The notes: generated by a model from the sequence alone, not told the origin. Counted from the stretch's first letter, positions 1,798-33,666 are shown. The stretch is DNA of 64,000 nt from Candidatus Poribacteria bacterium (GCA_009843785.1 VYCT01000339.1:4228-68227); one strand, 5' to 3'. Translations and numbers: made by a program.

Positions 1798-2556
1798 ATG
1801 TTAGTGAAATTTCTAATCATTGTAACAGCCCTGTTTTTATTCACTGTCCCTGTTTTCGCAGGCACATTTTTGGAAACCTTTGATCGCAAAGAGTTGGACG
1901 GATGGCAGGAAATTTGGGTGGATAAGGGACCCGCTGTCTGGGAGATTGTTGATGATCAACTGCACGCAGAAAGTCGTGAGGCATATATTCATTTGCTAAC
2001 AACTGGGGATGACACGTGGGAAGACTACACTGTGGAACTTGATGTTAAGCCGCTAAAAAAGCACGGTATTGGCGGAATCTCAATCGCTGTGCGGGTTGAT
2101 AGAACTTGGTTAGTTTCCTGCGATATTTCTGATCCAGTGATTATAAGGGGGGATGATCCTCCGGTTCAAGAGGAACAAATAAGTTGTGGTGCTACTGGTT
2201 TGCACCGGCCACTGCCACCACGTGCCATTCTTATCGATGAACCGCACCCACTTTTAAGATTAAACAGATGGGCACATCTAAAGTTAAGTGTTGAAGGCGA
2301 TATCTTTACCTTCTGGCTTAATGGTGAGCAGATTATGGCACCTACGCAACTTCTAATTTTCAGGGGGATTGATGTCTTTGCTAAAGCTAATTTTCCAGAC
2401 TTTCAGACCGGCGGTGTCGGTTTTGGGCTCTGGAACTATACGGCAATCTTTGATAATATCACTGTCACGGGTGAGAGCGTTCCAAATGGCGGTGATTTCG
2501 CCGTAACGCCCCAAGAAAAACTGGCGACAACCTGGGGTAACTTGAAGAAATTTTAG
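1798..2556 (+). CDS. Secreted DUF1080/LamG-like (concanavalin-like jelly-roll) protein, paralog 1.
   Basis: Signal peptide, with RBS GGAGGTGA upstream. The GW..W..DG.L motifs and the terminal GGVGFGLWNYTAIFDNITVTG strand are typical of DUF1080-type jelly-rolls. The C-terminal tail is ...FAVTPQEKLATTWGNLKKF. Confidence 0.6.
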   Translation: MLVKFLIIVTALFLFTVPVFAGTFLETFDRKELDGWQEIWVDKGPAVWEIVDDQLHAESREAYIHLLTTGDDTWEDYTVELDVKPLKKHGIGGISIAVRVDRTWLVSCDISDPVIIRGDDPPVQEEQISCGATGLHRPLPPRAILIDEPHPLLRLNRWAHLKLSVEGDIFTFWLNGEQIMAPTQLLIFRGIDVFAKANFPDFQTGGVGFGLWNYTAIFDNITVTGESVPNGGDFAVTPQEKLATTWGNLKKF

Positions 2557-2626
2557 ATACACGGCGAAGCAGCAATCAGAAAATGTTTCTAAGTAGCTGC
2601 CGGATTATAAGGAGGTATTTATTGAT

Positions 2627-3621
2627 ATGAAACGTGTGCAAACTTACGTGGTATTAGGGGTGGTATTGTTAAGCAATCTGTTTGTCGGCGGCGGACAAAC
2701 GGCTGAACGTAATGTCATCTCTTTTATTTCCATAACAGGTGGAGATCGTCTCCTCTATCTCATGAATACCCGAGGCGAGATGCTCCGAAAACCTTTTGTA
2801 ATAGGGCCAATACGTTTGTACGGCCTGAGCTGGGCACCTGATGGACGTGCGTTTGCCTATTACTTAAGGCGAGACGGAAACACTGATATTTATGTGATGG
2901 ATGTCGGGACAAATGAACACCATCAATTGACTTTTGACGGTAGCAGAGATACGTGGCCTGTATGGTCTCCGAATGGGAAGTGGATTGCTTTCGTCTCAGA
3001 GCGTGACGGAAGCAAGGACATCTATAGAATGGATGCAAATGGAAAAATGTGAAGCAACTCACGAACATGGGAAGCTGCGGCAGACCGGCTTGGTCGCCAG
3101 ATAGCCAATCGATTGCGTTTACGTCATCATCCTTTCTTTTTTTAATGGATACCGAGGGTAAAAGATTAAAACGGCTCGTAGCAGCTGACCCGTTCGCGCA
3201 TTGTACGTGGTCTCCAGATAGCAAACAAATTCTTTTTTCCGCAAGCGTTGGTGGATGGGGGAGAGAGGAACTTTTGAGCATCGACGTAAATGGAGCAGGT
3301 CAACATCAACTCACCTGGTTAGATCGACCCGCATCCATCTCCGAACCTATCTGGTCGCCGGATAGGAAATGGATTGCCTATTTTTTGAAAGAAATACTGA
3401 AGTTAGAACCGGTTCTCGGACCTGGAAATTTTGATCTGCCGGTCATCTATGTCATAGATACAGAAAACGATGGACACCCGGAACCGCTTGAATCAACAAA
3501 AAGATTGGCAGCCTATTCGCTGGGGTGGGCACCGGAGGGGTTCCTCTCCGTATCTCCGAGTGCAGAGAAACAGACAACACTCTGGGGGAGACTCAAGCAA
3601 TCCGAAGATGCTTCCAAGTAG
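2627..3621 (+). pseudogene. TolB-like PD40 beta-propeller protein, split by a frameshift at about 3040-3052 (ORFs 2627..3052 and 3049..3621).
   Basis: The two ORFs are collinear with the intact paralog 6642..7634. The run 'aatggaaaaatgtgaagcaactc' here corresponds to 'aatggagagaatgtgaagcaactc' there, a 1-nt loss in an A-run. The signal peptide and WSPDG/DIYVMD PD40 repeats are present. Confidence 0.65.
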
Positions 3622-3801
3622 CTGCAACATTATAGGAGAAAGTAGTTACTTTCAAATAAAGGTGGAATCGGGGTTAGAAACCTCTCCTACGGCGAATGTT
3701 AATGGTGATGCTGTTGTGAATATACAGGACTTGGTGATTGTTGTGAATGCGTTTTAGATGTGATTTATCCTATAAATGTTCGCGTAGAATGGAGGGGACA
3801 A

Positions 3802-4557
3802 ATGTTAGTGAAATTTCTAATCGTTGTAACAGTCCTATTTTTATCTCCTTTATCTATTTTCGCAGGCACATTCCTGGATACCTTTGAGGACGGTAATTTG
3901 GACGGATGGCGGGAACTGGTTCCGTGGGATAGAGTACCGGGGTCTTGGGAGGTCGTTGAGGGTGGACTCCACGGGGCAGGTGATGATATATCTCTGCGTC
4001 TATTCACAACTGGAAATGATACATGGAAGGATTACACAGTCGAATTTGATGTCAGGCTCCTTAAAAGAAGACCCGGTTCCCCACGTATCTCGATTGCGGT
4101 GCGGGTTCAGGAGAAATGGATAGTGCAGTGCGTTATGATGGAGCCAGTAATCGTGTTGCCTGGCGGTGGCAATGTGCCAGAAAAAGGATGGGTGCATTGT
4201 TACGCTGGCAGTTTGAACGGTGGAAAAGTTAAGGGACTTCTCTTGGAACCGCATCCACGTTTAAAATTATTCAGATGGGTACATCTAAAGTTAAGTGCTG
4301 AAGGCAATATCTTCACCTTTTGGATTAATGGTGAGCAAGTTATGGAACCTACAGAACTGCGTGTTCGCAGAGACCGTGAAGGTTTTGAGGACTTTCCTGA
4401 TTTTCAGACCGGGGGTGTCGGTATCGGTCTCGCGAATTGTACAGCGCACTTTGATAACGTCACTGTCACGGGTGAGAGCATTCCCGACAGCGGTGATTTC
4501 GCCGTAACGCCCCAAGCAAAACTTGCCACAACTTGGGGACACTTGAAAAAATTTTAG
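3802..4557 (+). CDS. Secreted DUF1080/LamG-like protein, paralog 2.
   Basis: The start MLVKFLIVV matches the paralog 1 start, with RBS GGAGGGG 6 nt upstream. Same domain organisation; the C-terminal tail is ...FAVTPQAKLATTWGHLKKF. Confidence 0.6.
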   Translation: MLVKFLIVVTVLFLSPLSIFAGTFLDTFEDGNLDGWRELVPWDRVPGSWEVVEGGLHGAGDDISLRLFTTGNDTWKDYTVEFDVRLLKRRPGSPRISIAVRVQEKWIVQCVMMEPVIVLPGGGNVPEKGWVHCYAGSLNGGKVKGLLLEPHPRLKLFRWVHLKLSAEGNIFTFWINGEQVMEPTELRVRRDREGFEDFPDFQTGGVGIGLANCTAHFDNVTVTGESIPDSGDFAVTPQAKLATTWGHLKKF

Positions 4558-4591
4558 CGGCAACGGCGATAGCATTGAGAGGAGAATTATT

Positions 4592-5575
4592 ATGAAAATA
4601 GAACGGACCTATACATTCTTTGGCATAACACTCTTGTTGAGTCTATTTCTTTTCAGCATAAATGCTTGGGCGGATACGTATATCTCCTTTAGTTCCAATC
4701 GGGCTGGAAACTATGATGTCTATGTTATGGATATATTCGGAAACAATCTACGCAACTTGACGAATCACCCCGCTTATGACGGGGACGTAACATGGTCACC
4801 TGACGGAGATTCTTTCGCTTTTGTGTCGAACCGGGATGGACACCGCGATATCTACATTATGGATGTCGATGCGATAGCAACTCGACGATTGACAAATCAT
4901 CCAGAGGAGGCTACCCAACCGGACTGGTCCCCCGATGGAAACTGGATCGTATTCAAATCGGACAGAGCGAGCAGAGAAAACTATGATATCTACAAAATAG
5001 GGGTCAACGGTAGAAATCTACAACGGCTCACTAAACATAAAGCATACGATTCGGCCCCAGCGTGGTCGCCAGATGGGAAACAGATCGCTTTCTCTTCCCA
5101 TCGCGATGGAAGTACGGGTATCTTTATGATGAATGCCGAAGGGAAACATCTCAGGCGCGTTACACAAGCAGAAGTTAGAGCGATATCTCCGAGCTGGTCG
5201 CCAGACGGGAAACAGATCGCTTATTCTGCAAATTTTGCGGGCAGTGGTATCTACGTCCTGGATATGCTTAGGAAAGATTTGCGCCGCGTGACGCCTATGG
5301 GCATTTGGAGTAAGCACCCAGCGTGGTCACCCGATGGGGATTGGGTTGCCTACGATATGGAACCTGAAAAGCAGTGGGGCAACCCGAAGGAGTTGGATCA
5401 AAACATTTATATCGTCGGTGCTGACGGAGGTAGACCTCGCCAAATCACAGTGGATGCGGGGAAAGATCGTGATCCCGCGTGGGTCCCAGAGACGTTTTTC
5501 TCTGTATCCCCGAGCACGGAAAAAAAGACAACGCTCTGGGGTAGACTCAAGCAATCGGAAGATGCTTCCAAGTAG
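4592..5575 (+). CDS. TolB-like PD40 (WD40-like beta-propeller repeat) periplasmic protein.
   Basis: Signal peptide plus repeated '(D)IY.MD..G.N..RLT...A.D..P.WSPDG..IAF' units. The C-terminal tail is FFSVSPSTEKKTTLWGRLKQSEDASK. Confidence 0.7.
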   Translation: MKIERTYTFFGITLLLSLFLFSINAWADTYISFSSNRAGNYDVYVMDIFGNNLRNLTNHPAYDGDVTWSPDGDSFAFVSNRDGHRDIYIMDVDAIATRRLTNHPEEATQPDWSPDGNWIVFKSDRASRENYDIYKIGVNGRNLQRLTKHKAYDSAPAWSPDGKQIAFSSHRDGSTGIFMMNAEGKHLRRVTQAEVRAISPSWSPDGKQIAYSANFAGSGIYVLDMLRKDLRRVTPMGIWSKHPAWSPDGDWVAYDMEPEKQWGNPKELDQNIYIVGADGGRPRQITVDAGKDRDPAWVPETFFSVSPSTEKKTTLWGRLKQSEDASK

Positions 5576-5598
5576 ATACTGCATTATAGGCGGAATTT

Positions 5599-6612
5599 AT
5601 GCGTATGAAACGCACCGGCATTTATGTGGCGTTAGGAATAGCGTTTCTGCTAAATAGCAGTCTGTTCGTCAGTATTGGTTGGACGATTGAAACGGATGTC
5701 ATCTCTTTTGTTACAAGAAAGGACAGGGGGCATTCTATCCAACTCATAAATACTCAAGGCGAATTCCTTCAAAGACTCATGTTAGAAGGATCCATAGCCC
5801 ACTTCACTTGGTCCCCTGATGGACACTCAATTGCTTATAGTTCCAATAGAAATGGGGATCCCGATATTTATGTAATCGATGTGAGAACGAACACGCTTCT
5901 TCAGTTGACCTTCGATGATGAGAAGGATTGGTGGCCCGCGTGGTCCCCGAATGGAAAATGGATCGCATTCGCCTCAAATCGCGCAGGGGAGATAGATCTC
6001 TACAGAATGGACGCAACTGGAGAAAATATGATGCGACTGACGAATCAAGGGAAGTGTAAAAGACCCGTTTGGTCGCCGGATGGTCAATGGATTGCCTTTG
6101 TTTCAAAGTCCGCTCTTTTTGTGATGAGTGCTGAGGGGAGAGGGGTGCGGCGGCTCACAGATACATTTTCCACTGGCTGCACATGGTCGCCGGATGGAAA
6201 AGAGATCGCTTTTGTCCCACGAGCGGATGCTGTCGGGGGCACTGCTCTTTTCAGTATTGATGTAGATAGCAAAAACACGCGCCAACTCACTCGGGTCTAT
6301 AAAGGACTCGTAGCAATCTTTGAACCTGCGTGGTCTTCGAGGGGAAAATGGATCGCCTATCTTTTGGTTCAACCGTTAGAAAAACCCCCCGAAGGGCAAC
6401 TCGGTATCGCAGAAGAGTTTTTTGGTAACTCGGTCATTTGTGTTGTTAATACGGCAGACGTGGACGGTGGCGAACCCCTTGAAGCGACGAGAGAATTGGT
6501 CGGGAGCGATCTTCAATGGGTGCCGGAAAGGTTCCTCTCAGTATCACCGAATACCGAAAAGCAGACAACACTTTGGGGTAACCTTAAGCAAGCAGAGAAC
6601 GCCTCCAAGTAA
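5599..6612 (+). CDS. TolB-like PD40 beta-propeller protein.
   Basis: Signal peptide and PD40 repeats. The C-terminal tail is FLSVSPNTEKQTTLWGNLKQAENASK. Confidence 0.7.
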   Translation: MRMKRTGIYVALGIAFLLNSSLFVSIGWTIETDVISFVTRKDRGHSIQLINTQGEFLQRLMLEGSIAHFTWSPDGHSIAYSSNRNGDPDIYVIDVRTNTLLQLTFDDEKDWWPAWSPNGKWIAFASNRAGEIDLYRMDATGENMMRLTNQGKCKRPVWSPDGQWIAFVSKSALFVMSAEGRGVRRLTDTFSTGCTWSPDGKEIAFVPRADAVGGTALFSIDVDSKNTRQLTRVYKGLVAIFEPAWSSRGKWIAYLLVQPLEKPPEGQLGIAEEFFGNSVICVVNTADVDGGEPLEATRELVGSDLQWVPERFLSVSPNTEKQTTLWGNLKQAENASK

Positions 6613-6641
6613 CTGCCTCGTTATAGGAGGGATTTGTTAAG

Positions 6642-7634
6642 ATGAAATGCATGCGATTTTATGTAGTATTAGGGATGGTGTTATTGCTAAGTAGCGGTCT
6701 GCTCATCCACAGTGGTTGGGCAGATGAAAGGGACATCCTCTCTTTTGTTTCTGAAAAAGGTGGAGACAGTCCTATTATTCTTATGAATACCAGTGGCGCG
6801 ATCCTCGAAAGGTTGGCAACACATCCCGGACAACCATCCGAATTCACTTGGTCGCCGAATGGACGTTCGATTGTCTATGACTCCTGGCACGGTGGAAACT
6901 TCGATATTTATGTGATGGATGTGGAAGCAAATACACACCGTCAGTTGACTCTTGATGGTAGCAGGGACCAGTTGCCTGTATGGTCTCCGAATGGGAAGTG
7001 GATTGCCTTCGTTTCGGACCGTGCTGGGGGCAGAACCCTCTACAGAATGGATGTCAATGGAGAGAATGTGAAGCAACTCATAAACAAGAAAGATTGCCGC
7101 AAACCCGCTTGGTCGCCAGATAGTCAATGGATTGCCTTTGCTGCAGAACACTCTCTTTACGTGATGGATGCTGGCGGTAGAAGGTTGCGGGAACTCACAT
7201 GGACGACACGTTTTTCTGAATGTTCATGGTCACCCGATGGCAAACAGATCGCTTATATGTCAAATGCGCCTAATGGGGGCAGCGAAGTTTTCAGCATTGA
7301 CGTAAATGGAAAGAACCGCCGCCAACTCACGCAGTCGGACGGGCCGACACTCATTTGGGACCCTGTGTGGTCTCCGAGTGGAGAATGGATCGCTTATATC
7401 GTGGGCCAGATTCCAGTAGGCGGTGGGCCGGTAGATCAAATTATGACTAATGGGGTCGTCAGTGTTGTCAATACGATAGACGGTGCCGGTGGGCAACCGA
7501 TTGAGGCAACAAGAGGATTGCCAAAACAGTCTCTTCAGTGGGTGCCAAAACAGTTGCTCTCTGTATCCCCGAGTGCGGAAAAGCAGATAACATTCTGGGG
7601 TAAGCTCAAGCAATCCGAAAATATTGCCAAGTAG
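6642..7634 (+). CDS. TolB-like PD40 beta-propeller protein.
   Basis: Signal peptide and PD40 repeats. The C-terminal tail is LLSVSPSAEKQITFWGKLKQSENIAK. Confidence 0.7.
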   Translation: MKCMRFYVVLGMVLLLSSGLLIHSGWADERDILSFVSEKGGDSPIILMNTSGAILERLATHPGQPSEFTWSPNGRSIVYDSWHGGNFDIYVMDVEANTHRQLTLDGSRDQLPVWSPNGKWIAFVSDRAGGRTLYRMDVNGENVKQLINKKDCRKPAWSPDSQWIAFAAEHSLYVMDAGGRRLRELTWTTRFSECSWSPDGKQIAYMSNAPNGGSEVFSIDVNGKNRRQLTQSDGPTLIWDPVWSPSGEWIAYIVGQIPVGGGPVDQIMTNGVVSVVNTIDGAGGQPIEATRGLPKQSLQWVPKQLLSVSPSAEKQITFWGKLKQSENIAK

Positions 7635-7707
7635 TCGCTGTATATCGGAAAAATTTATTGCGACTTCCACATATCTCTTATATTTTCAACCTATTAAGGA
7701 ACGCACA

Positions 7708-8508
7708 ATGAAATTTGCTATTTTGATTATTGGAGGTATTCTCTTGTTCCAGGCGTTCCCTGTTTCCGCTGGCACGTTCGTTGAGACGTTTGATAACTTT
7801 AACTTAAAGGATTGGGAAGAAGTTAACGAGCGGAATGCTCCCGTTGGAGAATGGTGGGGCATCAATGGTATGCTGCACGCAGAAAACAAGGATAACGCGA
7901 TCCAAATGTTAGCTATAAAAGATGCAGCGTGGCACGATTATGAGGTGGAATTAGACGTAATGCCACTTGACAGACAGGGACGCGGGCACATTGTGCTTGC
8001 TGCACGAGTCAATCAGACGCATGCGATTGTTTTTGCGATTGGCAATATCTTCTGGAACGCACCCGCACCGATAGTTTCAGGCTTCATTTTTAACTTGAAT
8101 ACCGGAAGAAGGGTGGGGTTTCCATTGGTGCTTATGAAAATACAAGATTTGTTCAACGGACGCCCGCAAGGTGAAATTGTGGATGAGCTTTTGCGGGTTG
8201 GTGTGGTTACAGATATATGTACAACAATTTTACCGCATCCCTTTCTTGAAAGAGGGAAGTGGACCCAGTTAAAGCTGCGTATCGTCGATAAAACTTTTAT
8301 GTTCTCAGTTAATGGAGAGGTGGTCTTATATCTCACTTGTCTTTTTGACGGCTTCGCTTTCTTAAAAGAAGACCTTAATGTTGGCAGTGTCGGTTTCGGT
8401 CTTGCAGGCTATACCGCTCGATTTGACAATCTCAAGATCACCGGTGAAGATGTGCCAAATCACGGCAATTTGTCGGTCCAACCCCAAGGCAAATTGGCGG
8501 TGACGTAG
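7708..8508 (+). CDS. Secreted DUF1080/LamG-like protein, paralog 3. Its C-terminal tail is cut short by an in-frame TAG.
   Basis: The start MKFAILIIGG carries a signal peptide, and the jelly-roll terminal strand FGLAGYTARFDNLKITG is present. The sequence reads ...KLAVT* where the paralogs read ...KLATTWGxLKKF. The nucleotides after the stop still encode GQLKSEAF. Confidence 0.55.
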   Translation: MKFAILIIGGILLFQAFPVSAGTFVETFDNFNLKDWEEVNERNAPVGEWWGINGMLHAENKDNAIQMLAIKDAAWHDYEVELDVMPLDRQGRGHIVLAARVNQTHAIVFAIGNIFWNAPAPIVSGFIFNLNTGRRVGFPLVLMKIQDLFNGRPQGEIVDELLRVGVVTDICTTILPHPFLERGKWTQLKLRIVDKTFMFSVNGEVVLYLTCLFDGFAFLKEDLNVGSVGFGLAGYTARFDNLKITGEDVPNHGNLSVQPQGKLAVT

Positions 8509-8657
8509 GGACAACTGAAGTCGGAAGCGTTTTGAACCTGACATGTAACATTTACCACAACCGCAGCTGCTAACGACGCAGTGGGCGAAATTAAAAAGAA
8601 ATAAACTTTCACACCTTACTTTTTGTAAGAAGATGTGTCAAGGAGGAATTCGTTAAA

Positions 8658-9680
8658 ATGAAACATACTTTTCTTTATATAATGTTAGGGGTCACCTTGC
8701 TGGTCAGTAATGTCCTGCTTGTTAGCAATAGCCAGGCAGATAGGACCGGGACAATCTCTTTTGCTTCCTACATCCGAAGCCCTGACCTCTTTCTCATAGA
8801 TAGCACAGGTAAGAATCTTCGAGAACTCACAACCGATGATAGAAATAAGCGTTCACCGACCTGGTCGCCGGACAGACGTTTTTTTGCCTATCAATCCAAA
8901 GACGATAAGGGTCTTGAGATCTATGTGATGGATGTCGAAAGCAAGACATCCCGCCAATTGACAAATCATCCCGGTAGGGACCTGTCGCCTGTGTGGTCCC
9001 CGAATGGCAAATGGATCGCTTTTGTGTCTGACCGAGCCGGTGATCTGGATATCTACAGAATTGATGTAGACGGTTCAAACTTAAAGCGGTTGACAAAACG
9101 TGGAGACAACCAAAATCCCGCTTGGTCACCAAATAGTCAGTGGATCGTCTATGATTCCTATCAAGGCGGAGATCATCGTCCAGGCGGCGTTCCGGGAAGA
9201 CATTTCCTCTATGTAATGAACGCTAATGGGGCAAGATCAAAGCAACTCTTAGAAGATCTAAACATATCCGGATGCACTTGGTCACCTGATGGAAAGCATA
9301 TTGCTTTTGCTTCCGGGAATATAGGCGGTGATGGCGTGAATATCCACATCATTGATGCCAATGGAAATAACCGCCGCACGCTAACCAGAGTGGGTCCAAA
9401 TGCGACAGCGAGAGATCCAGCGTGGTCGCCTGATGGCGAATGGATTGCCTATTTTTTCGTGCGCTTGCCAGTATTGAATCCTGGTCAAGCAATTCCAATC
9501 AATCAGGCTTTTCAAAACAATGTCATCAGTGTCATAAATACTGACGGTAAAGACGCAGAACAACCGCTTGAGGCAACACGCAGACTGTCGACCGGTCCTG
9601 TGTGGGTACCAGAGGTTTTCTTCCCAGTTTCACCGCAACCGCAATCATTACCTACGCAGTGGGGGCACCTAAAAAAGTAG
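8658..9680 (+). CDS. TolB-like PD40 beta-propeller protein, a divergent paralog.
   Basis: Signal peptide and PD40 repeats (WSPDRRFFAY, WSPNGKWIAF and others). The tail is FFPVSPQPQSLPTQWGHLKK. Confidence 0.7.
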   Translation: MKHTFLYIMLGVTLLVSNVLLVSNSQADRTGTISFASYIRSPDLFLIDSTGKNLRELTTDDRNKRSPTWSPDRRFFAYQSKDDKGLEIYVMDVESKTSRQLTNHPGRDLSPVWSPNGKWIAFVSDRAGDLDIYRIDVDGSNLKRLTKRGDNQNPAWSPNSQWIVYDSYQGGDHRPGGVPGRHFLYVMNANGARSKQLLEDLNISGCTWSPDGKHIAFASGNIGGDGVNIHIIDANGNNRRTLTRVGPNATARDPAWSPDGEWIAYFFVRLPVLNPGQAIPINQAFQNNVISVINTDGKDAEQPLEATRRLSTGPVWVPEVFFPVSPQPQSLPTQWGHLKK

Positions 9681-9934: not shown

Positions 9935-12900
9935 ATGCTGATGGTGGAAAACGATGTTCAACTGATTCACAGAATTTTGTCGGGTGATGAAGCGGCATTT
10001 AGTGCTTTGGTGCGAAAGTACCAAAAGAGCGTTCACGCGCTTGCGTGGCGGAAGGTTGGGGATTTTCACATCGCTGAAGAGATTGCGCAAGATGCCTTCC
10101 TCCAAGCATACAAAAACCTCGCTACGCTGAGGAATCCCAACCAGTTTGCTGGGTGGTTGTATGTCATCGCCAATCGACTTTGCCTGAAGTGGCTCCAAAA
10201 GAAAAAAACGCCGGTACAATCGTTGGAGGGTACGTCTGTGGTAGAAGTAGAGCAATCTTCTTATAAACGTTATGTATCGGAACAGCGGGAGACAGCAGCC
10301 AAGGAACGTCGGCATGAAATCGTTGAGGCACTTTTGGAAACGTTGCCAGAGAGTGAACGCACGGTGGTGACACTCTACTATCTCGGTGAAATGACGGCGA
10401 AGGAGATTGGCAATTTCTTAGGGGTATCGGTGAACACCATTAAAAGTCGGCTTCGCCGGGCCCGAGAACGTTTACAAGCCGAAGAGCACCTGATTAGTGA
10501 AACGCTCGGAAGCGTCCAATTGCCCGCCAATTTCATTGAGCGTATTATGCAGCAAGTTGCCGACATCAAACCGACACCGCCTTCGGCTGGAAAACCGTTG
10601 CTACCCTGGATCGCTTTTGGCACCGCTGCCCTTCTTATAATGCTGATGATCAGTGTCGGTGCCCAATACCTTACGCGCTTTCAGAAACCTTACAACTTGA
10701 ACGCCGAATCGGAAACCACTGTTGAAATCATTGACGCACCTATTGTCCTTGATACGCAGGCGGAACCGGATCTGCGCAACCAAGCCGGACGTTCTGATAC
10801 CACGGGTAGGGACAGCGGTGCCGGTGTGCAAGTTTCAGAACCTGTTGTCCCAGTCGCCGCGCAGATAGAAAAGGGACCCCTGACAACACCACAGCAGTGG
10901 AAACCAGCGAGCGTACCAGCGAGCGGCCCCGTAGGCGGCTTACTGGTAAGTTCAAACGGCGATGTCTACGCCGCTTCGGGTCTCGGTATCTATAGATTAA
11001 CGCCAGACACGCGAGCATGGGCCTTCCTCAGCCCTATCGCTTTGAAGAGCTCTACAACTTTGAAGGCACCCGTTGTAATACCGATGGCGGAGCAAAATGG
11101 GACGCTTTATCTTGTTTCTCATGAAGTCCTTATTTCAACCAATGGAGGCGAGATGTGGGAGCCAGTTGGCACCCTTCCCAAAGGTATTCCTGTCGCATTG
11201 GCAGTAACGGATGAAGCCTTGTACCTCCTGCTGAAAGATAAAGGCGTTTTCCGATCTGAAGATATGGGACAGCAGTGGACACCCCTCGGTGGTGAAGTGA
11301 TGGATAGAAACATCTCTGCTTTGGCGACTATTGAAAACACCGTATTTGTCGGAACAAATCAGGGACTCTACCGTATCAATCCAACGCATAGTTCGGCAAT
11401 GGATATATGGGAAAAATTGCCGCTAACTACCACTAAAGCTATCCACTCCTTAGCAACCGCCGAGAACAACCTCTATGTCGGAACAGGCCCCGACTTAGGT
11501 ACCTCGAAACGCGAGGAAATGCGGGAACAGATGTCCGCCGAGGTATCCGCTGGGCGACCCGTGTGGGAAATTTTCCGGTCAACCGATTTCGGCGATTCAT
11601 GGACCGAAATCACACCGACAAGCGAGCCTGCCTTGACATGGTTCTCGCCGGGCATTAAGGTCCTTACTGCTGGAAAAACGCTTTGGGCATTGGGATACAC
11701 TGGGTTCCAATGCCGATCCACTGATGCTGGCGAAACATGGACAAACCATGGATACAAAAAATTGGATCCGCTTTCAATGATGAATTCGTTTATGCTGAGT
11801 GTTTTTCCTGCCATTGGTGTGGATGAAAATATCCTGTTCAAAGCCAGCCTTTTTGGGCTTATCCGTTCAACCGATGCTGGCGAATCGTGGCATCCGTTTA
11901 TGACAGGCATGGTGGGAACCCAGATATCTAACTTAGTCGCCTTCAAAAACGCACTCTACGCCTATACCGGTACGAATATCGCGAAATCCACCGACGGTGG
12001 GATGTCCTGGAGAAACCTGCGATTCACCCCTGATCAATTAACACCAGAATTAGGATCGGCATGGGAGGTCGGTCTTCTACTCTCTTCTTCGCAGCTGGCA
12101 ATTGCTGACCATAAACTCTACTGCCTCGGCAGCGCAGTTGCCGCAAACATAGAAGAGGCACAGCATCGCATCTTCCATCTTTCCCAGAACGGCGGTGCGC
12201 TGGTACTTATGTCGGAAGCTCCTGTTTTTGGTAAAAATCTTTCTATGGAGCCGCCAAAAACTGCATCACAAGAGAAGTCGGAAAAAAATAGACCCGACGA
12301 TGCTCCTAACGATCCTGAGAAGGCCGATGAATCGACAGACACAACCCGCAATCCCATAGCATCTCACAGCGCGTTTGCAGTCAGCGGCGAAACGTTTTAT
12401 GTGGAATATCAGCGGCGGCTCCTGCGGTGGAGACGCGGCGAACCTGAATGGTTCGACACTGGTCTGGTAGACATCGATCTGCGTGCTAACGATGATGGTC
12501 CCGATCATTTTATTCTGGCTGTTTCAGGTGAAATTGTCTACGTTGGCAAACGTGATGGACATCTGTTTCGATCGCTTGATAGCGGGAACACATGGAAAGA
12601 CCTGACCGCAACGTTGCCACTTCGATTTAAACATTTCAACGATATTGTTTTTGCGGATTCAGCGGTTTATGTCGCCACAGATGCGGGGGTCTTAACATCG
12701 GTGGACGGTGAAAATTGGCGCACAATAACCGATACAGTCGGTACACACACCGTCGTAGACCGAGTTGCCGTAGATGATATAACGATTTATGGTGCTGGCG
12801 ATACAGGTGCTTATCAATTGGATCATCGCGGCAGATGGGAACGGATCTCGCCAGACGTACCAAGCAGCGTCATTTCTGTTGCTGTCAAGGGTAACAGGCT

Positions 12901-12961
12901 TTATATTGTTACCGAACGGAGCGGGATGTTTTATGCCGCGCTTGAGAAGAAAAACGATTGA
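9935..12961 (+). CDS. ECF sigma-70 factor fused through a single transmembrane helix to a large extracytoplasmic BNR/Asp-box repeat domain.
   Basis: The N-terminus has sigma-70 region 2 (FSALVRKYQKSVHALAWRKV...DAFLQAYKNL) and region 4 (TVVTLYYLGEMTAKEIGNFLGVSVNTIKSRLRRARERL). A hydrophobic helix (PLLPWIAFGTAALLIMLMISVGA) follows. Then come BNR motifs (STNGGEMW, STDFGDSW, STDAGETW, STDAGESW, STDGGMSW, SLDSGNTW). The last ~150 aa are paralogous to the end of ORF 2..1765. Confidence 0.7.
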   Translation: MLMVENDVQLIHRILSGDEAAFSALVRKYQKSVHALAWRKVGDFHIAEEIAQDAFLQAYKNLATLRNPNQFAGWLYVIANRLCLKWLQKKKTPVQSLEGTSVVEVEQSSYKRYVSEQRETAAKERRHEIVEALLETLPESERTVVTLYYLGEMTAKEIGNFLGVSVNTIKSRLRRARERLQAEEHLISETLGSVQLPANFIERIMQQVADIKPTPPSAGKPLLPWIAFGTAALLIMLMISVGAQYLTRFQKPYNLNAESETTVEIIDAPIVLDTQAEPDLRNQAGRSDTTGRDSGAGVQVSEPVVPVAAQIEKGPLTTPQQWKPASVPASGPVGGLLVSSNGDVYAASGLGIYRLTPDTRAWAFLSPIALKSSTTLKAPVVIPMAEQNGTLYLVSHEVLISTNGGEMWEPVGTLPKGIPVALAVTDEALYLLLKDKGVFRSEDMGQQWTPLGGEVMDRNISALATIENTVFVGTNQGLYRINPTHSSAMDIWEKLPLTTTKAIHSLATAENNLYVGTGPDLGTSKREEMREQMSAEVSAGRPVWEIFRSTDFGDSWTEITPTSEPALTWFSPGIKVLTAGKTLWALGYTGFQCRSTDAGETWTNHGYKKLDPLSMMNSFMLSVFPAIGVDENILFKASLFGLIRSTDAGESWHPFMTGMVGTQISNLVAFKNALYAYTGTNIAKSTDGGMSWRNLRFTPDQLTPELGSAWEVGLLLSSSQLAIADHKLYCLGSAVAANIEEAQHRIFHLSQNGGALVLMSEAPVFGKNLSMEPPKTASQEKSEKNRPDDAPNDPEKADESTDTTRNPIASHSAFAVSGETFYVEYQRRLLRWRRGEPEWFDTGLVDIDLRANDDGPDHFILAVSGEIVYVGKRDGHLFRSLDSGNTWKDLTATLPLRFKHFNDIVFADSAVYVATDAGVLTSVDGENWRTITDTVGTHTVVDRVAVDDITIYGAGDTGAYQLDHRGRWERISPDVPSSVISVAVKGNRLYIVTERSGMFYAALEKKND

Positions 12962-13141: not shown

Positions 13142-14770
13142 ATGAAAAAAATAAGCCTTTCAATTTTAACCCTACTCTCCATTTTCACTTTTACTTTACC
13201 TTTTGCCGCTGCCGAAGAGTACTTCCATACTCGGACGCTCAGCGGGCATAGAATTGCTGTCTCTGCAGTGGCATTCAAAGACGATAGCACACTTGTCAGT
13301 GTTGGGACCGATAGTGCCCTTCGCTTTTGGAATCTTGACATGGGGGCACAACACTGGCAGACCGAAGTCGGTCTCTTCTTAATCTCTGACATTGCAATCT
13401 CATCGCATGACTCGCGTTTTGTCGTTTATGCCGGCGGACTCTTTTTCCGCCCTTATATTGGGATGTCCTACACAGATGACGGAGACATAAGAGGTTACCT
13501 CGTGGGACCTACAAACACTGTCAATACGCTATCCTTTAAACCCGGGAGTTTCATCCTTGCCAGCGGGAGCAACGACGACACAATCCGTATCTGGGATTTA
13601 ACATGGGACGCATGGAAAAGTCGACCCGTTCGGACACTGCGGGGGCATGCGAATGATGTCGAGTCGGTTGCGTGGAGTCCTGATGGAACACTGCTCGCCA
13701 GTGGCAGTAGAGACCGGACCGTCCGCTTGTGGAACCCAGATAACGGCACCAATACTGCTATATTTCGCGGACATACGAATACTGTAAACTCAGTTGCGTG
13801 GAGTCCTGATGGAACGCTGTTCGCGAGTGCAAGCAACGATGACACAATCCGTATTTGGGACCCAACCAACACGGATGCCCCACTGCACGTCTTGGAGGGG
13901 CATACCGGGAACGTCAATACGTTGGCATTCCATCCAACCGAGGCAATTCTTGCCAGTGGCAGTAGCGATGATACAATCCGCTTATGGGACTCCACCACTG
14001 GTCTCCACAAAGCCACGCTGAAAGGGCATACCGGTGGTGTTAATACAATAGCGTGGAACTCTGATGGGTCACTTCTTGCGAGTGGCAGTAATGACGACAC
14101 AATCCGCTTGTGGGAGCCACTCGCAGCGGTTGATATAACAGGGGACGGTAGTGTCACATATCTTGACATTATTGAAGTAGGGGAGAACTACGGAAAAACT
14201 GTCGTAAATGGAGCAAACCCACGCGCAGATGTCAACAAAGATGGTATCGTTAATATTGAGGACCTCATTGTTGTTGCTAAGGCAGTGGATTCCCAAGCAC
14301 CCGTAGATTCCCAAGCGGCACCTATGCTTGCACAGCATCCACACGATTTCTCCTTCACCGCGAAAGATGTCCAGCAGTGGATCCAAGACGCACAGGATGT
14401 TGGTGCGAATCCACAGACGATTGCTATCTTAGAACGCTTTTTAGCCGTTGGGACACGGATGGCACAACCAACACCCGAAAAAACAGTTCTCTTGGCGAAC
14501 TACCCCAACCCCTTCAATCCAGAGACCTGGATACCCTATCAGTTGGCACAACCAGCGGAGGTCGCTGTCTTCATTCATACTGCGAACGGTGCTTTGGTCC
14601 GGACGCTGCCATTGGGCGAAATGCCTTCAGGTATCTATCAGAGTAGAGCCCGTGCTGCCTATTGGGATGGTAAGAATGCTCACGGAGAGCCAGTCGCAAG
14701 TGGTGTCTATTTCTATACGCTCAAAGCAGGACAATTTACTGCGACGCGTAAGATGTTGATCCAGAAGTAA
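13142..14770 (+). CDS. Secreted WD40-repeat protein with a dockerin-like pair and a C-terminal T9SS/FlgD-Ig-like sorting domain.
   Basis: Signal peptide. At least six canonical WD40 units (GH..V.S.AWSPDG..LAS.S.D.T.R.W). Dockerin-like calcium-binding repeats (ITGDGSVTYLD...DVNKDGIVNIEDLIVV). The C-terminus is LANYPNPFNPETWIPY...YWDGKN..GEPVASGVYFYTL.AGQFTATRKMLIQK. Confidence 0.75.
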   Translation: MKKISLSILTLLSIFTFTLPFAAAEEYFHTRTLSGHRIAVSAVAFKDDSTLVSVGTDSALRFWNLDMGAQHWQTEVGLFLISDIAISSHDSRFVVYAGGLFFRPYIGMSYTDDGDIRGYLVGPTNTVNTLSFKPGSFILASGSNDDTIRIWDLTWDAWKSRPVRTLRGHANDVESVAWSPDGTLLASGSRDRTVRLWNPDNGTNTAIFRGHTNTVNSVAWSPDGTLFASASNDDTIRIWDPTNTDAPLHVLEGHTGNVNTLAFHPTEAILASGSSDDTIRLWDSTTGLHKATLKGHTGGVNTIAWNSDGSLLASGSNDDTIRLWEPLAAVDITGDGSVTYLDIIEVGENYGKTVVNGANPRADVNKDGIVNIEDLIVVAKAVDSQAPVDSQAAPMLAQHPHDFSFTAKDVQQWIQDAQDVGANPQTIAILERFLAVGTRMAQPTPEKTVLLANYPNPFNPETWIPYQLAQPAEVAVFIHTANGALVRTLPLGEMPSGIYQSRARAAYWDGKNAHGEPVASGVYFYTLKAGQFTATRKMLIQK

Positions 14771-31389: not shown

Positions 31390-33666
31390 TTACTTGATTA
31401 TCAAGAGTTTCCGCGTGGCGGTGAAGTCGCCTGCGGTGAGGGTGTAGAAATAGACACCACTCGCGACAGGTTCACCGTGTCGGTTTTTACCATCCCAATA
31501 CGCGGCACGCCCGCGGCTTTGATAAACACCGGCAGGCTGATGCCCTAACGTCAACGTCCGCACCACGCTGCCGCGGACATCGTAGATCGTCAAGGTTACT
31601 TTCGCATCGGTTGCCAAGTGATACGGTATCCACGTTTCAGGGTTGAACGGGTTCGGATAGTTCGGTAACAGTGCCGATGTCTCCGGTATCGCCTTCATTT
31701 CTGTGAGCAGCTGCAGCAGCTCTTCAAGGACTACCGGTATTCCTTTTTCAAGGCGCACATCGCTGGTCGCGAGACGCTTCGCATCGGTCAGCGCAGCAGT
31801 AACATTGCGGTATGTGAGGTTCCCACGCGATAAAGCGTTCGGGGCTCCTGCGACAGCTTCAATCTCCGCTGCCTGTTCTGCGACCACCGCCAACACGGCT
31901 TCTATCTCTTCTAGCGAAAACCCTTGGGTAGTGCTGTTGGCAGCATCAATCCCTTGAGCGACCGCGGTAAGGTCTAAGATGTCAACCACCGCATCGGCAT
32001 TGACATCTGCGGGGAGGCTGATCCCTACTGGCACTTGCGTTCCATAAAAGAGTGCGACAATCGCAAGGTCTATGGTGTTCACCTGCCCATCGTCGTTGAC
32101 ATCCAAAGGAGAGCCAGGGGGCGGAACAGGAGGTTCAACCGGGGGCTCTTGACCTATCACGGTAATGGTAAAGTTCAAAGAATCAGAATTATTCCCGGCA
32201 TCCATAGTGGTGTACGTCGCGTTGGTGGTGCCGACTGTAGTAGGCGTGCCGGTAAGTAACCGCGTTGCTGCATTAAAGTCGAGCCCGTTGGGTATTGGCG
32301 AGAGCGTGTAGCGATACGGGGCGATGCCGCCTGTTGCCGCAGGCAACGCCAGTGGCGTGATAAGCGTGTCAACCGGGAACGTCTGATCCGCAATCGTAGG
32401 TGGATTGAAGATCAGCGGTGGCGTGGTTGACGGCTGAACGGTAACTTTGACACCCGTGGAGTAGTTATTGTTCGTAAAGGCTTCATTGGCAACAAGGTCG
32501 ACACCTGCACCGTAGTAGGATGTGCCGGCGGAAGGTGCAGTGACCGTAAAACTCACTTCGCTTGTAGCAGCAGGTGCCAGCGCATCCATAGGTCTTGAAC
32601 CGAGCTCGATATCAAAGGGTGTAATGCTGTTATCAAAAGACTGATAAAACCACAAGTTTGTTGGGGACGCAGCGACACCACCCCTGTTTCTGACGATAAC
32701 CGACAGCGTAAAACTTGCACCAGGAATGGGGGCATCCGTGTTCACCCAGACGGCTTCAACAACCAAATCGGATGCAGTTTCGGCAGGTGCAGGTAAATGC
32801 TGCTCGATTTCAGGCAGAATATGCGACATCAAACTGCCGGCATTAAAAAGCGGCTCACCGGTAAACCGATTGGTCCAAGCACTATGATGAATCCCGATAA
32901 CGCCTGTTCCATCACGCAGGAAAACCGGCGAACCGGAGGCACCACCCTCAGAGTCTGCAAGGTAAGCGAATATGAAGGGCAACTCGGCGGTGAAAGCCGG
33001 TGGCAAATCCACGATTTCCGTGTTGTTCCGGACAATCTCTTTCGACCTACCAGCAGGATGCGAAATCAGTTTCACACTCTGATCTGAATCCACACGGGTC
33101 GTGGTATCCAGTTCGAGCCATCCATAAGTATTCCCGAGGGGTCTATCCAGTCTGAGAAGGGCGTAGTCCTTAAGTTCATCCATCTGTACAATGCCAGACA
33201 CACGCGCTGTGAGACCACCGAGCGTCTCATCCACCTCTTCCTCCTGATAATAATCCATGAAAATGGCGGCACCTTCAAGCGGGAGGAGACCGTCCTCGTC
33301 ATGAATACAGTGGTGGTTCGTCATGAACAGATCGGGACCTACGAGGAAACCGGTACAAATAAAACCCCGCAGACCGTCCCGACTCGGGATAAAAAACAAG
33401 CCGACTTTGCGTCCGAGAATGTAGTCCCGACTGTTTGGCGGGAAGTCCCGCATCTTTTCAAAATCATTGGTCCCGAATATTATATTGGGTACTCTTTGAA
33501 ATTCGGCGTTGCCTTGTATATACGCTGCGCCATCAGCGGTTGGGAATTCAAAGTCGCCTTCAAGTAAGCCTTCTGGAATAGCAAACCCGTTTGTGACACC
33601 AAGTGAAACCAAACCTAAAATTACGATTAAAAACAGAATGTGGGATTTTCTAAACTTTCTAAGCAC
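31390..33666 (-). CDS. Secreted trypsin-like (S1, V8/glutamyl-endopeptidase-like) serine protease with Ig-like domains, a dockerin repeat pair and a T9SS/FlgD-Ig-like C-terminal domain.
   Basis: Signal peptide. A His block (TGFLVGPDLFMTNHHC) and a Ser block (GGASGSPVF). Dockerin repeats (DVNDDGQVNTIDLAIV..., DVNADAVVDILDLTAV). The C-terminus is LLPNYPNPFNPETWIPY...YWDGKNRHGEPVASGVYFYTLTAGDFTATRKLLIIK. Confidence 0.75.
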   Translation of the reverse strand: MLRKFRKSHILFLIVILGLVSLGVTNGFAIPEGLLEGDFEFPTADGAAYIQGNAEFQRVPNIIFGTNDFEKMRDFPPNSRDYILGRKVGLFFIPSRDGLRGFICTGFLVGPDLFMTNHHCIHDEDGLLPLEGAAIFMDYYQEEEVDETLGGLTARVSGIVQMDELKDYALLRLDRPLGNTYGWLELDTTTRVDSDQSVKLISHPAGRSKEIVRNNTEIVDLPPAFTAELPFIFAYLADSEGGASGSPVFLRDGTGVIGIHHSAWTNRFTGEPLFNAGSLMSHILPEIEQHLPAPAETASDLVVEAVWVNTDAPIPGASFTLSVIVRNRGGVAASPTNLWFYQSFDNSITPFDIELGSRPMDALAPAATSEVSFTVTAPSAGTSYYGAGVDLVANEAFTNNNYSTGVKVTVQPSTTPPLIFNPPTIADQTFPVDTLITPLALPAATGGIAPYRYTLSPIPNGLDFNAATRLLTGTPTTVGTTNATYTTMDAGNNSDSLNFTITVIGQEPPVEPPVPPPGSPLDVNDDGQVNTIDLAIVALFYGTQVPVGISLPADVNADAVVDILDLTAVAQGIDAANSTTQGFSLEEIEAVLAVVAEQAAEIEAVAGAPNALSRGNLTYRNVTAALTDAKRLATSDVRLEKGIPVVLEELLQLLTEMKAIPETSALLPNYPNPFNPETWIPYHLATDAKVTLTIYDVRGSVVRTLTLGHQPAGVYQSRGRAAYWDGKNRHGEPVASGVYFYTLTAGDFTATRKLLIIK

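Follow-up and report, generated by a model that had tools for sequence, protein, structure and literature searches.

Why do two unrelated families of exported proteins, alternating in a tandem gene array of a Candidatus Poribacteria bacterium, end in the same short peptide? The array lies at positions 1798-9680 of the stretch of DNA analysed here (the window, 64,000 nucleotides). A first-pass annotation, made from the sequence alone, had proposed that this tail is a recognition tag for a dedicated protease, transporter or anchoring enzyme. It had added that the proposal would fail if the tail were restricted to the one array, matched a known domain boundary, or proved to be the last beta-strand of both folds.

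An array of tailed jelly-roll and propeller genes

By Pfam, the D genes of the array belong to PF06439 (DUF1080/3keto-disac_hyd) and the P genes, with which they alternate, to PD40. The features of the array and its flanks are as follows.

17-1765, + strand: upstream flank, C-terminal part of an ECF-sigma/TM/BNR-Sortilin-like propeller fusion that runs off the window start; no tag
1798-2556, + strand: D1, secreted DUF1080/concanavalin-like jelly-roll; tag 2491-2553, GDFAVTPQEKLATTWGNLKKF
2570-2596, + strand: relic of a PD40-type tail end (QQSENVSK, then stop) and shared spacer, directly past the D1 stop codon
2627-3621, + strand: P2, PD40 propeller, in ORFs 2627-3052 and 3049-3621; tag 3544-3618, LSVSPSAEKQTTLWGRLKQSEDASK
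3802-4557, + strand: D3, DUF1080 paralogue; tag 4492-4554, GDFAVTPQAKLATTWGHLKKF
4592-5575, + strand: P4, PD40 (TolB-like) propeller; tag 5498-5572, FSVSPSTEKKTTLWGRLKQSEDASK
5599-6612, + strand: P5, PD40 propeller; tag 6535-6609, LSVSPNTEKQTTLWGNLKQAENASK
6642-7634, + strand: P6, PD40 propeller; tag 7557-7631, LSVSPSAEKQITFWGKLKQSENIAK
7708-8508, + strand: D7, DUF1080 paralogue, readable to 8535; tail GNLSVQPQGKLAVT, then a stop, then GQLKSEAF
8555-8605, + strand: remnant tag of the P8 subtype from a PD40 gene since lost, in the spacer between D7 and P8, PQPQLLTTQWAKLKRNK
8658-9680, + strand: P8, PD40 propeller; divergent tag 9621-9677, FPVSPQPQSLPTQWGHLKK
9935-12961, + strand: downstream flank, a second ECF-sigma (r2+r4)/TM/BNR-Sortilin-like propeller fusion of 1008 aa; no tag

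The family assignments are supported by a PF06439 match on D1 (2.5e-10, residues 26-223), whose model resembles DUF1080/CBM66 structures in Foldseek, and by a PD40 match on P4 (1.5e-52); the match of P4 to the NCBIfam TolB propeller model fell under that model's cutoff. D3 starts at the ATG at 3802, matching the start of D1. All eight array proteins carry typical Sec-type N-termini, and their tails read h-h-x-V-x-P-x2-3-K-x-[TA]-T-x-W-G-x-L-K followed by 1-9 polar residues. Thus, the first-pass claim of a shared tail on eight proteins with signal peptides held, with the qualification that two genes, P2 and D7, are damaged. Its single regular expression for all tails held only in part, as it fits the PD40 type, and the DUF1080 type is one residue shorter between P and K. 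The shared ends exceed chance: a six-frame scan of the 64 kb for WG.[LIVM][KR] gave nine matches, seven of which are array gene ends.

P2 is broken by a frameshift near 3046-3052, a split also found in the independent assemblies L001 and L002. The D7 tag (8464-8505) is cut by a TAG at 8506-8508, exactly at the invariant Trp codon, and its remainder is still legible past the stop (GQLKSEAF, then a second stop, 8509-8535). Three D7 orthologues (P0009, P0019 and P0053) have W in this position and read KLAVTWGQ[LI]K. The end of the D7 tag has been lost in this strain, indicating that not every copy needs it. The P8 tag represents a divergent subtype without the Lys before TxW, which also occurs in P0063 and P0101.

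Distribution and conservation of the tail

A tail profile search recovered 147 cluster representatives among 1.84 billion proteins, with the motif 1-11 residues from the C-terminus in 143 of them. We also ran a back-translated tail pattern over 185,579 species genomes, which gave more than 119 matches; 118 of 119 were genuine ORF ends and 108 came from genomes labelled Poribacteria, a deep-ocean Poribacteria MAG being among the genomes matched. Restriction to a single array, the first of the refuting outcomes, is therefore not the case. The final Lys is followed by 1-5 residues (mode 3) in 181 non-identical genomic tails, and by 1-9, rarely more, when profile matches and genomic tails are taken together.

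The carriers cover at least eight Pfam-distinct folds, fall into 30 BLAST components, and are domain proteins of 215-1681 aa. The tail follows PF06439, PD40, Laminin_G_3, Kelch, CBM9_1 and F5_F8_type_C domains, and is also found on LTD-containing proteins (968-1681 aa), an ankyrin protein, and several families without a Pfam match. Most carriers are non-catalytic binding modules, namely lectin-like jelly-rolls and beta-propellers. Nearly all carriers have signal peptides. A signal-peptide rule was passed by 123 of 151 complete carriers, compared to 136 of 456 neighbouring genes. The rule is crude, and the N-termini of all 15 failing carriers that we inspected still resemble signal peptides. 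We conclude that the tail is modular, strictly C-terminal, carried by exported proteins and restricted to Poribacteria.

The general consensus spans ~22 residues, h-h-[AP]-V-[ED]-[PA]-x-x-K-L-[TA]-T-T-W-G-x-[LI]-K-x(1-5), and the PD40 subtype reads V-S-P-S-x-E-K-Q-T-T-L-W-G-R-L-K-Q... Conservation peaks in the distal K-L-T-T-T-W-G-x-L-K, where K, L, T, T, W, G and K are near-invariant, and V-[ED]-P is conserved at the junction between domain and tail. Positions outside the search pattern are conserved as well (V 91%, E/D 67%, P/A 87%). The paralogues D1 and D3 agree at 55% over the body and 90% over the tail, and P4 and P2 at 38% and 88%, respectively. The tail is kept in 119 of 120 close D1 homologues and in 114 of 119 P5 homologues. 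Across ~180 tails, the third codon positions have 1.8-2.0 bits of entropy, compared to 0-0.4 bits for the first and second positions of the conserved residues. The third positions are thus free to vary, which shows that selection acts on the protein. Since the D-type and P-type tails also differ at the DNA level, the first-pass claim of protein-level conservation, as opposed to a recent DNA copy, held.

The tail has a net charge of ~ +2, with Lys/Arg on either side of the core. In the general type the final residue is mostly R, Q, K or N (R > Q > K), and F or Y is final in just 20 of 179 tallied tails. PD40-subtype tails usually end in Lys; in Lpp-like attachment an L,D-transpeptidase cross-links a C-terminal Lys to peptidoglycan, a chemistry that cannot be read from sequence.

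Structure of the tail and comparison with known signals

In the AlphaFold (AF2) models, residue 225 is the last of the D1 jelly-roll, and the P5 propeller stops at about residue 314. Confidence is low for the tails beyond them (231-252 in D1, 315-337 in P5), with pLDDT <50 in both and a range of 31-42. With very low confidence, AF2 puts WGxLK in a weak helix. The hydrophobic moment of the tail core shows a beta periodicity at 160 degrees (z=+13.8), and at the helical angle of 100 degrees it lies below shuffled sequences (z=-2.8), although this statistic rests on essentially one motif and not on independent samples. No TM helix was found in the tail, K-L-[TA]-T-T-W-G-x-[LI]-K being polar without a hydrophobic run, as the first-pass annotation had stated. 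The models predict that the tail lies outside both the jelly-roll and the propeller folds. They contradict the possibility that it is the last beta-strand of both, as does its presence on at least eight unrelated folds.

Searches with Pfam and NCBIfam gave no match on the tail at E<=1, none of the NCBIfam sorting-signal models match it, the PDB holds nothing matching it, and a literature search found the motif strings in no paper. The tail therefore matches no known domain boundary or sorting signal in these sources, and is undescribed by any model or paper.

The closest comparison within the window is the T9SS CTD (TIGR04183-type/FlgD_ig-like, genes 13142-14770 and 31390-33666), detected as PF13860. 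Like the tail, it is a modular C-terminal addition to unrelated Sec-exported families and is limited to certain lineages. However, the CTD is a folded beta-sandwich of about 80-100 aa that Pfam recognises (roughly 90 aa in the window), whereas the tail is ~22 aa, predicted to be disordered and without a model. The two never occur on the same gene among those sampled. We rejected the tail as a T9SS type A/B or FlgD_ig-like CTD because of its length, the lack of an HMM match, pLDDT <50 and the absence of a sandwich, in agreement with the first-pass view that the two are distinct. The PEP-CTERM/exosortase, LPXTG/sortase and GlyGly-CTERM/rhombosortase signals are likewise short C-terminal tags on unrelated secreted proteins of one lineage. 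The V-[ED]-P of the tail recalls PEP, and a basic C-terminal end is common to the tail and these tripartite signals, but their defining hydrophobic TM helix is missing. PEP-CTERM, in which a hydrophobic TM helix of about 20 residues lies between PEP and an Arg/Lys cluster, was rejected because the segment between V-[ED]-P and the basic end has no hydrophobic run and there is no NCBIfam match, and an LPXTG/sortase signal because the tail has neither LPXTG nor a TM helix.

Other candidates fared no better. An outer-membrane beta-signal (BAM) was rejected since a terminal aromatic residue is rare and the carriers are soluble jelly-rolls and propellers. A T1SS C-terminal signal, uncleaved and about 50-60 aa long, was rejected since the carriers have Sec signal peptides and no RTX repeats were found with Pfam. 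An encapsulin cargo-loading or BMC encapsulation peptide, which marks cytosolic cargo and in the BMC case forms an amphipathic alpha-helix, was rejected since signal peptides are present and the helical moment lies below shuffled sequences. Dockerin-cohesin pairs and peptide-in-groove docking (the TolB-box on PD40, PTS1 on TPR receptors) show how a C-terminal module can tie diverse proteins to a common scaffold or receptor, and the tail carriers often sit beside propeller and TPR genes. A dockerin, at about 60-70 aa, is a folded Ca-binding domain, and dockerins are present separately in this genome; the tail has no known receptor and no binding data.

Proposed role of the tail and rival explanations

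There is good support for the tail as a modular tag; its role is inferred. On balance, we favour, by a modest margin, the reading that it is a new, phylum-specific tag, recognised after the protein has left through Sec and used to sort or anchor it. In this reading, the signal peptide would take the protein through Sec, leaving the unstructured, net-cationic tail, which lacks a membrane-spanning segment, joined to the folded domain by a flexible junction. The T-rich core, possibly shaped as a V-E-P-x-G turn followed by a K-L-T-T-T-W strand, would then adopt an extended strand or hairpin and dock with an envelope factor that acts in trans and is common to all carriers. This factor would sort or tether them to a single destination, the cell surface or outer envelope being the likeliest. 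The trans-acting reader, the beta-strand docking and the sorting or anchoring role are all inferred, without experimental or proteomic data. To our knowledge there is no precedent for such a mechanism, known bacterial C-terminal sorting signals having a TM helix or a folded domain. Our survey of the neighbourhoods of 119 tag loci found no universal partner gene and no cognate protease, transporter or receptor, so that the first-pass proposal of a tag for such an enzyme remains an inference.

A bolder reading, towards which we remain slightly sceptical, is that this is the first bacterial C-terminal sorting or anchoring signal without a TM helix or folded domain, read by an envelope machine, as yet unknown and specific to Poribacteria, that puts a large repertoire of lectin-like and propeller proteins on display at the cell surface. 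Poribacteria are an uncultivated phylum that is dominant in many sponge microbiomes, and surface display, if true, could matter for glycan or host recognition in the symbiosis. Lineage-specific C-terminal tags have repeatedly led to sorting machines (sortase, exosortase, archaeosortase, rhombosortase and T9SS). A large group of exported proteins that had gone unrecognised (LamG, DUF1080, PD40, Kelch, CBM9-like and F5/8-C among them) bears the tag, and its 30-position profile defines candidate envelope or surface proteins in Poribacteria. It also provides a concrete bait for the cognate reader, by phylogenetic profiling or peptide pull-down; should the reader be new, the range of known bacterial protein-sorting types would widen. 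The short peptide may itself be usable as a targeting or docking tag.

Among the rivals to the sorting or anchoring tag, a signal for outer-membrane translocation that is cleaved off, working as a T9SS CTD in miniature or in the manner of the curli N22 peptide, remains possible. Periplasmic intermediates would be passed to a dedicated outer-membrane channel and the tail then removed, for example near the V-E-P junction. The strictly C-terminal, phylum-specific placement on Sec-exported proteins and the conserved V-[ED]-P at the junction are in keeping with this, as is the separate FlgD_ig/T9SS-like CTD on other secreted proteins of the same genome, the two signals never being found together. 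However, no channel or peptidase gene is linked to the carriers, the cargo consists mostly of small binding modules and not enzymes, and conservation is strongest in the distal K-L-T-T-T-W-G-x-L-K rather than at the putative cleavage site. We consider it unlikely that the tail is instead a docking peptide among co-encoded proteins, inserting into a beta-propeller or TPR partner and building multi-subunit lectin complexes or head-to-tail chains. Candidate partners would be the PD40 proteins themselves, FG-GAP/UnbV_ASPIC proteins, BamB-like PQQ_2 propellers and secreted TPR proteins. In support, the array alternates between D and P genes; carriers of four different families in other Poribacteria lie directly downstream of an FG-GAP_3+UnbV_ASPIC gene, itself often preceded by a secreted TPR gene; and a PQQ_2 propeller precedes CBM9-like carriers. 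Disordered Trp-containing peptides are known to bind the TolB propeller (colicin TolB boxes). Yet such neighbours occur at only about 20% of the sampled loci, many of which are orthologous and so represent about 4-5 independent associations, and a propeller or TPR gene is absent near most LamG carriers. One invariant tag on more than eight families favours one common reader over many local partners.

The remaining rivals are weaker. A cationic interfacial anchor, binding membrane, LPS or anionic polysaccharide directly without a protein partner, would suit the net charge of ~ +2, the invariant Trp and the Lys/Arg beside the core. It is very unlikely, as helical amphipathicity is absent (z=-2.8) and binding to lipids or glycans normally calls for far less specificity than is seen in the near-invariant K, L, T, T, W, G and K. 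We can all but dismiss a peptide acting in cis through nascent-chain arrest or termination pausing, as in MifM, SecM or TnaC, and coupling export to translation of the next gene in the array. Like the tail, MifM and SecM have near-C-terminal, Trp-containing motifs in exported proteins. Tail stretches such as K-L-T-T-T-W... and ...QSEDASK bear a superficial likeness to MifM, and the next gene follows after only a short spacer. MifM depends on R69, I70, W73 and a downstream DEED sequence, with 16 residues from W73 to the arrest site (PMC4423224). In the tail, the distance from Trp to the stop is variable and, in the common type, much under 16 residues, so that the spacing is not fixed, and neither a C-terminal Pro nor an acidic block is conserved. 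Known arrest peptides are encoded by short leader ORFs dedicated to them, upstream of the regulated gene, whereas the tail is carried by large functional proteins (215-1681 aa) at many loci, several of those sampled being followed by a gene on the other strand. Just as remote is the possibility that the tail is not an independent element but the last beta-strand of each fold, or DNA recently copied by gene conversion or as a 3' repeat. Against it, AF2 puts the tail outside both folds, the same tail occurs on at least eight unrelated folds, third codon positions are near-random across 180 tails, and the D-type and P-type DNA differ. In its favour, gene 3' ends and intergenic spacers within the array are repeated at the DNA level. 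The claim that the array grew by tandem duplication accordingly held, and is refined by two spacers that retain remnants of PD40 3' ends since lost, the remnant at 2570-2596 aligning with the spacers of P2, P4 and P5 and with the final ~45 nt of these genes.

The tagged array and its history

The eight array proteins end in what is very likely a real, modular C-terminal tag, specific to Poribacteria, selected at the protein level and borne by exported proteins. Their genes are co-directional on the forward strand between 1798 and 9680, and all eight products (8/8) have typical Sec signal peptides at the N-terminus. The D genes match Pfam PF06439 (DUF1080/3-keto-disaccharide hydrolase, a concanavalin-like jelly-roll) and the P genes match Pfam PD40 repeats, with the TolB propeller model scoring below cutoff.

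Genes of the tagged array
D1, 1798-2556, + strand, PF06439
P2, 2627-3052 and 3049-3621, + strand, PD40 repeats
D3, 3802-4557, + strand, PF06439
P4, 4592-5575, + strand, PD40 repeats
P5, 5599-6612, + strand, PD40 repeats
P6, 6642-7634, + strand, PD40 repeats
D7, 7708-8508, + strand, PF06439
P8, 8658-9680, + strand, PD40 repeats

The first-pass annotation had claimed that these proteins share one C-terminal motif, which held for all eight with three corrections. In D7, where orthologues have the tag's invariant Trp (TGG), there is a TAG stop at 8506-8508. The truncation costs the last 8 residues. What follows the TAG can still be read as the rest of the tag, and an independent assembly (L001) has the same TAG. 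A frameshift at 3046-3052 divides P2 into two ORFs (141 aa and 190 aa). Since the split was found again in independent assemblies from other samples, P2 is probably a genuine pseudogene, or else the shift is programmed or tolerated. The P8 tail is a divergent subtype. Among the array paralogues, tails are better conserved than bodies (D1/D3 identity, 55% in the body versus 90% in the tail; P4/P2, 38% versus 88%). A six-frame scan of the whole 64 kb with WG.[LIVM][KR] did not find the motif outside the array. Proteins identical to those of the array occur on metagenome contigs, and the nearest named homologues are from Candidatus Poribacteria.

Repeated 3' ends and spacers, and array growth by tandem duplication, had also been proposed. 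The repeats held for the P genes, and together with two PD40 relics they support tandem duplication, to which gene loss must be added:

2570-2596, 'QQSENVSK*', directly after the D1 stop, a lost PD40 3' end
8555-8605, 'PQPQLLTTQWAKLKRNK', between D7 and P8, a lost PD40 3' end

With these PD40-type tag ends, the spacers document gene loss within the array and suggest recombination at the level of the tag. An alternating D-P unit is conceivable as the original state and is consistent with the data. The P2-D3 spacer contains a dockerin-like fragment (3686-3757, PTANVNGDAVVNIQDLVIVVNAF), the remnant of a different type of gene.

Spread and anatomy of the tag

Confinement of the tail to a single array would have counted against a sorting tag, and was ruled out by a profile search and a genome scan. 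A first protein-database search with a 40-aa tail alignment returned only fragments of 53-74 aa. An exhaustive search of 1.84 billion cluster representatives with a 30-position tail profile (E<=1e-3) gave 147 matches. The motif ends 1-11 residues from the C-terminus in 143 of these; the other four comprise three with a longer post-motif extension and one low-complexity false positive. For the genome scan, the back-translated pattern K-L-[AT]-T-T-W-G-x-h-K was run against one genome per species from 185,579 bacterial and archaeal species. At least 119 stretches matched, against a chance expectation, by our own estimate, of ~13 for the whole collection. Genomes labelled Poribacteria contributed 108 of the 119 (single-cell genomes, sponge MAGs and a 3000-m ocean MAG) and 'uncultured bacterium' MAGs nine; one came from a sponge-derived 'Pseudomonadota' bin (L043, RHO2_bin_21) and one from a 'Deltaproteobacteria' bin (L108, Meg22). 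The sole stretch not at an ORF end was the Synechococcus match. The tags on L043 and L108 look genuine although their contigs were binned outside Poribacteria, which may reflect mis-binning or a tag that reaches beyond the phylum. In all, 199 tail-bearing ORFs were found in the 8-kb loci, often 2-4 in tandem. An apparent ECF sigma-DUF1080 carrier fusion (P0048) was left out of the evidence because gene calling may have merged two adjacent genes.

A consensus was built on 181 non-identical genomic tails. It starts with a hydrophobic pair, [AP], V (91%), E/D (67%), P/A (87%) and two variable positions (often G/D/N). The core is K (95%), L (89%), T/A (93%), T (95%), T (91%), W (100%) and G (94%), and the end is a variable position, L/I (93%) and K (100%), followed by 1-5 residues (mode 3) rich in R, S, Q and K. 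Because V, E/D and P did not enter into the scan pattern, finding them conserved counts as independent evidence. In the PD40 subtype, P is followed by an additional residue, the core reads K-Q-T-T-L-W-G, and the extension is longer and usually Lys-final. The tail has a net charge of ~+2 and no hydrophobic membrane-spanning stretch. The hydrophobic moment of the core has beta-strand periodicity (160 degrees, z=+13.8 versus shuffles) and no helical periodicity (100 degrees, z=-2.8 versus shuffles), a statistic that covers one motif and not independent samples. In a comparison of 180 distinct tail DNAs, entropy is 1.8-2.0 bits at third codon positions and 0-0.4 bits at the first and second positions of conserved residues. 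This excludes a DNA/RNA element or recent copying as the cause, and bears out the earlier proposal of protein-level conservation.

Carrier proteins and their gene neighbours

The carriers include PF06439 (DUF1080), PD40, Laminin_G_3 (the largest group, 83 ORFs), Kelch, CBM9_1 and F5_F8_type_C proteins, together with LTD-containing proteins (968-1681 aa), an ankyrin protein and several families without a Pfam match. By BLAST, the sampled carriers fall into 30 components, of which 16 have at least two tagged members. The tail is kept in 119/120 D1 homologues and 114/119 P5 homologues. A crude N-terminal hydrophobic rule was passed by 123/151 complete carriers and by 136/456 neighbouring genes, and all 15 of the carrier misses examined also resemble signal peptides; from sequence alone, we infer that the carriers are very likely exported. 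That the tail might simply be the last beta-strand of both folds is contradicted by structure prediction, which places it outside them. In the D1 model (53-sequence alignment, mean pLDDT 77), which resembles DUF1080/CBM66 structures, the last jelly-roll residue is 225, and pLDDT is 31-40 over residues 231-252. In the P5 model (59 sequences, mean pLDDT 81), the propeller extends to ~residue 314, its last confident strand including 'WVP', and residues 315-337 have pLDDT <50.

We clustered 987 ORFs from 119 loci plus the window, and found no protease or transporter consistently adjacent to carriers. Recurrent neighbours were FG-GAP/UnbV_ASPIC (15 loci), Gfo/Idh/MocA (13), PhyH (11), ECF sigma (11) and TPR (11) genes, in part reflecting orthologous synteny with housekeeping genes. 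Against a rough, untested guess of the genomic background, the frequency of the ECF-sigma association did not seem out of line, and it was therefore not taken as an enrichment. The most suggestive order is operon-like: a secreted TPR gene, an FG-GAP_3+UnbV_ASPIC (CRTAC1-like) gene, then 1-4 tagged genes. Four different carrier families lie directly downstream of a secreted FG-GAP_3+UnbV_ASPIC gene, often with a secreted TPR gene before it (FG-GAP_3+UnbV_ASPIC loci: L087, L094, L064, L105, L023, L032, L014, L050, L083, L104, L113, L089, L072). Both proteins are possible partners or readers of the tag. CBM9-like carriers (L044, L068, L078, L115) come after a BamB-like PQQ_2 propeller, which has a TM segment at its N-terminus; the conserved module around them also has a DUF3500 gene, an ECF sigma factor, a zf-HC2 anti-sigma factor and a TPR protein. 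As many loci are orthologous and share housekeeping neighbours, only ~4-5 associations are independent, and TPR, FG-GAP or PQQ_2-type neighbours are missing at ~80% of loci. The pattern may be a lead; it is not a finding.

Large fusions of an ECF sigma factor (regions 2+4), a TM segment and a BNR/Sortilin-like beta-propeller (~700 aa) bracket the array, and a third, of 978 aa, adjoins carriers in another Poribacteria genome. They could be one-component sigma/anti-sigma sensors:

17-1765, ECF-sigma/propeller fusion
9935-12961, ECF-sigma/propeller fusion
L072:4308-7244, - strand, ECF-sigma/propeller fusion

The rest of the window, with unrelated metabolism genes and a mobile-element or prophage-like block (~34000-64000), contained no reader candidate. 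The block has a long series of minus-strand ORFs without a Pfam match, as well as:

34127-34747, ParA
36115-37413, Mrr-like nuclease
38120-39604, N6/N4 methyltransferase with HNH
40876-41619, integrase
49232-49819, lysozyme-like gene

Known signals and possible roles

No Pfam or NCBIfam model matched the tail at E<=1 (18 proteins tested), so that no known domain or sorting-signal model accounts for it. Searching PDB sequences with the tail profile yielded only chance matches and no relative. The literature searched contained neither the motif strings nor anything relevant on Poribacteria with sorting, LamG or T9SS. The tail fails a defining feature of each of the T9SS CTD, PEP-CTERM, LPXTG, the OMP beta-signal, the T1SS signal, encapsulin/BMC peptides and arrest peptides. 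Encapsulin/BMC targeting was rejected on account of the carriers' signal peptides, and an amphipathic-helix anchor on account of the hydrophobic moment; MifM-like arrest was rejected on comparison with MifM (PMC4423224).

We infer that the tag is read in trans, since it is near-invariant on unrelated folds, fixed near the C-terminus and disordered. An extended strand or hairpin of the tail would dock onto a common reader, resulting in sorting or tethering at the envelope. We favour this mechanism by a modest margin, as an inference, because the cargoes are mainly non-catalytic binding modules that need placement to be useful, and because the core has beta character without membrane-anchor character. 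A cleaved outer-membrane translocation signal is a possible but rather unlikely role for a tail on such apparently exported proteins. It is also unlikely that carriers dock onto each other or onto co-encoded proteins of the propeller or TPR type; the operon-like loci suggest such partners, which most loci do not have. Direct lipid or glycan binding by this positively charged tail without a membrane-spanning stretch is more doubtful still. A translational arrest peptide is all but excluded: the tail resembles MifM (R69, I70, W73 and DEED), but its spacing to the stop is variable and short, undermining the likeness. A fold element or DNA copy can be dismissed with similar confidence, being already contradicted by the models and the codon entropy. 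Lineage-specific C-terminal tags are already known as a general idea. The novelty of this particular tag lies in its being short, without a TM helix and not a folded domain, in its restriction to a single candidate phylum and in its absence from the family databases and literature searched. We lean slightly against its reporting a categorically new sorting route.

The tag had been held distinct from a T9SS CTD elsewhere in the window, and this stood: the two never occur together in the sample. The FlgD_ig/T9SS-like CTD is absent from all sampled tagged proteins, and the CTD proteins of the same genome lack the tag. We also rejected the tail as the N-terminal part of such a CTD, as 143/147 matches have the motif no more than 11 residues from the C-terminus with no CTD after it, and the sampled CTD proteins lack it. 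The two CTD proteins in the window are secreted and combine a dockerin repeat with the CTD (NYPNPFNPETWIPY...), one with WD40 repeats as its basis, the other with trypsin, CARDB and He_PIG domains:

13142-14770, dockerin/CTD protein
31390-33666, - strand, dockerin/CTD protein

Their CTD is likely a second, separate type of C-terminal signal in this genome.
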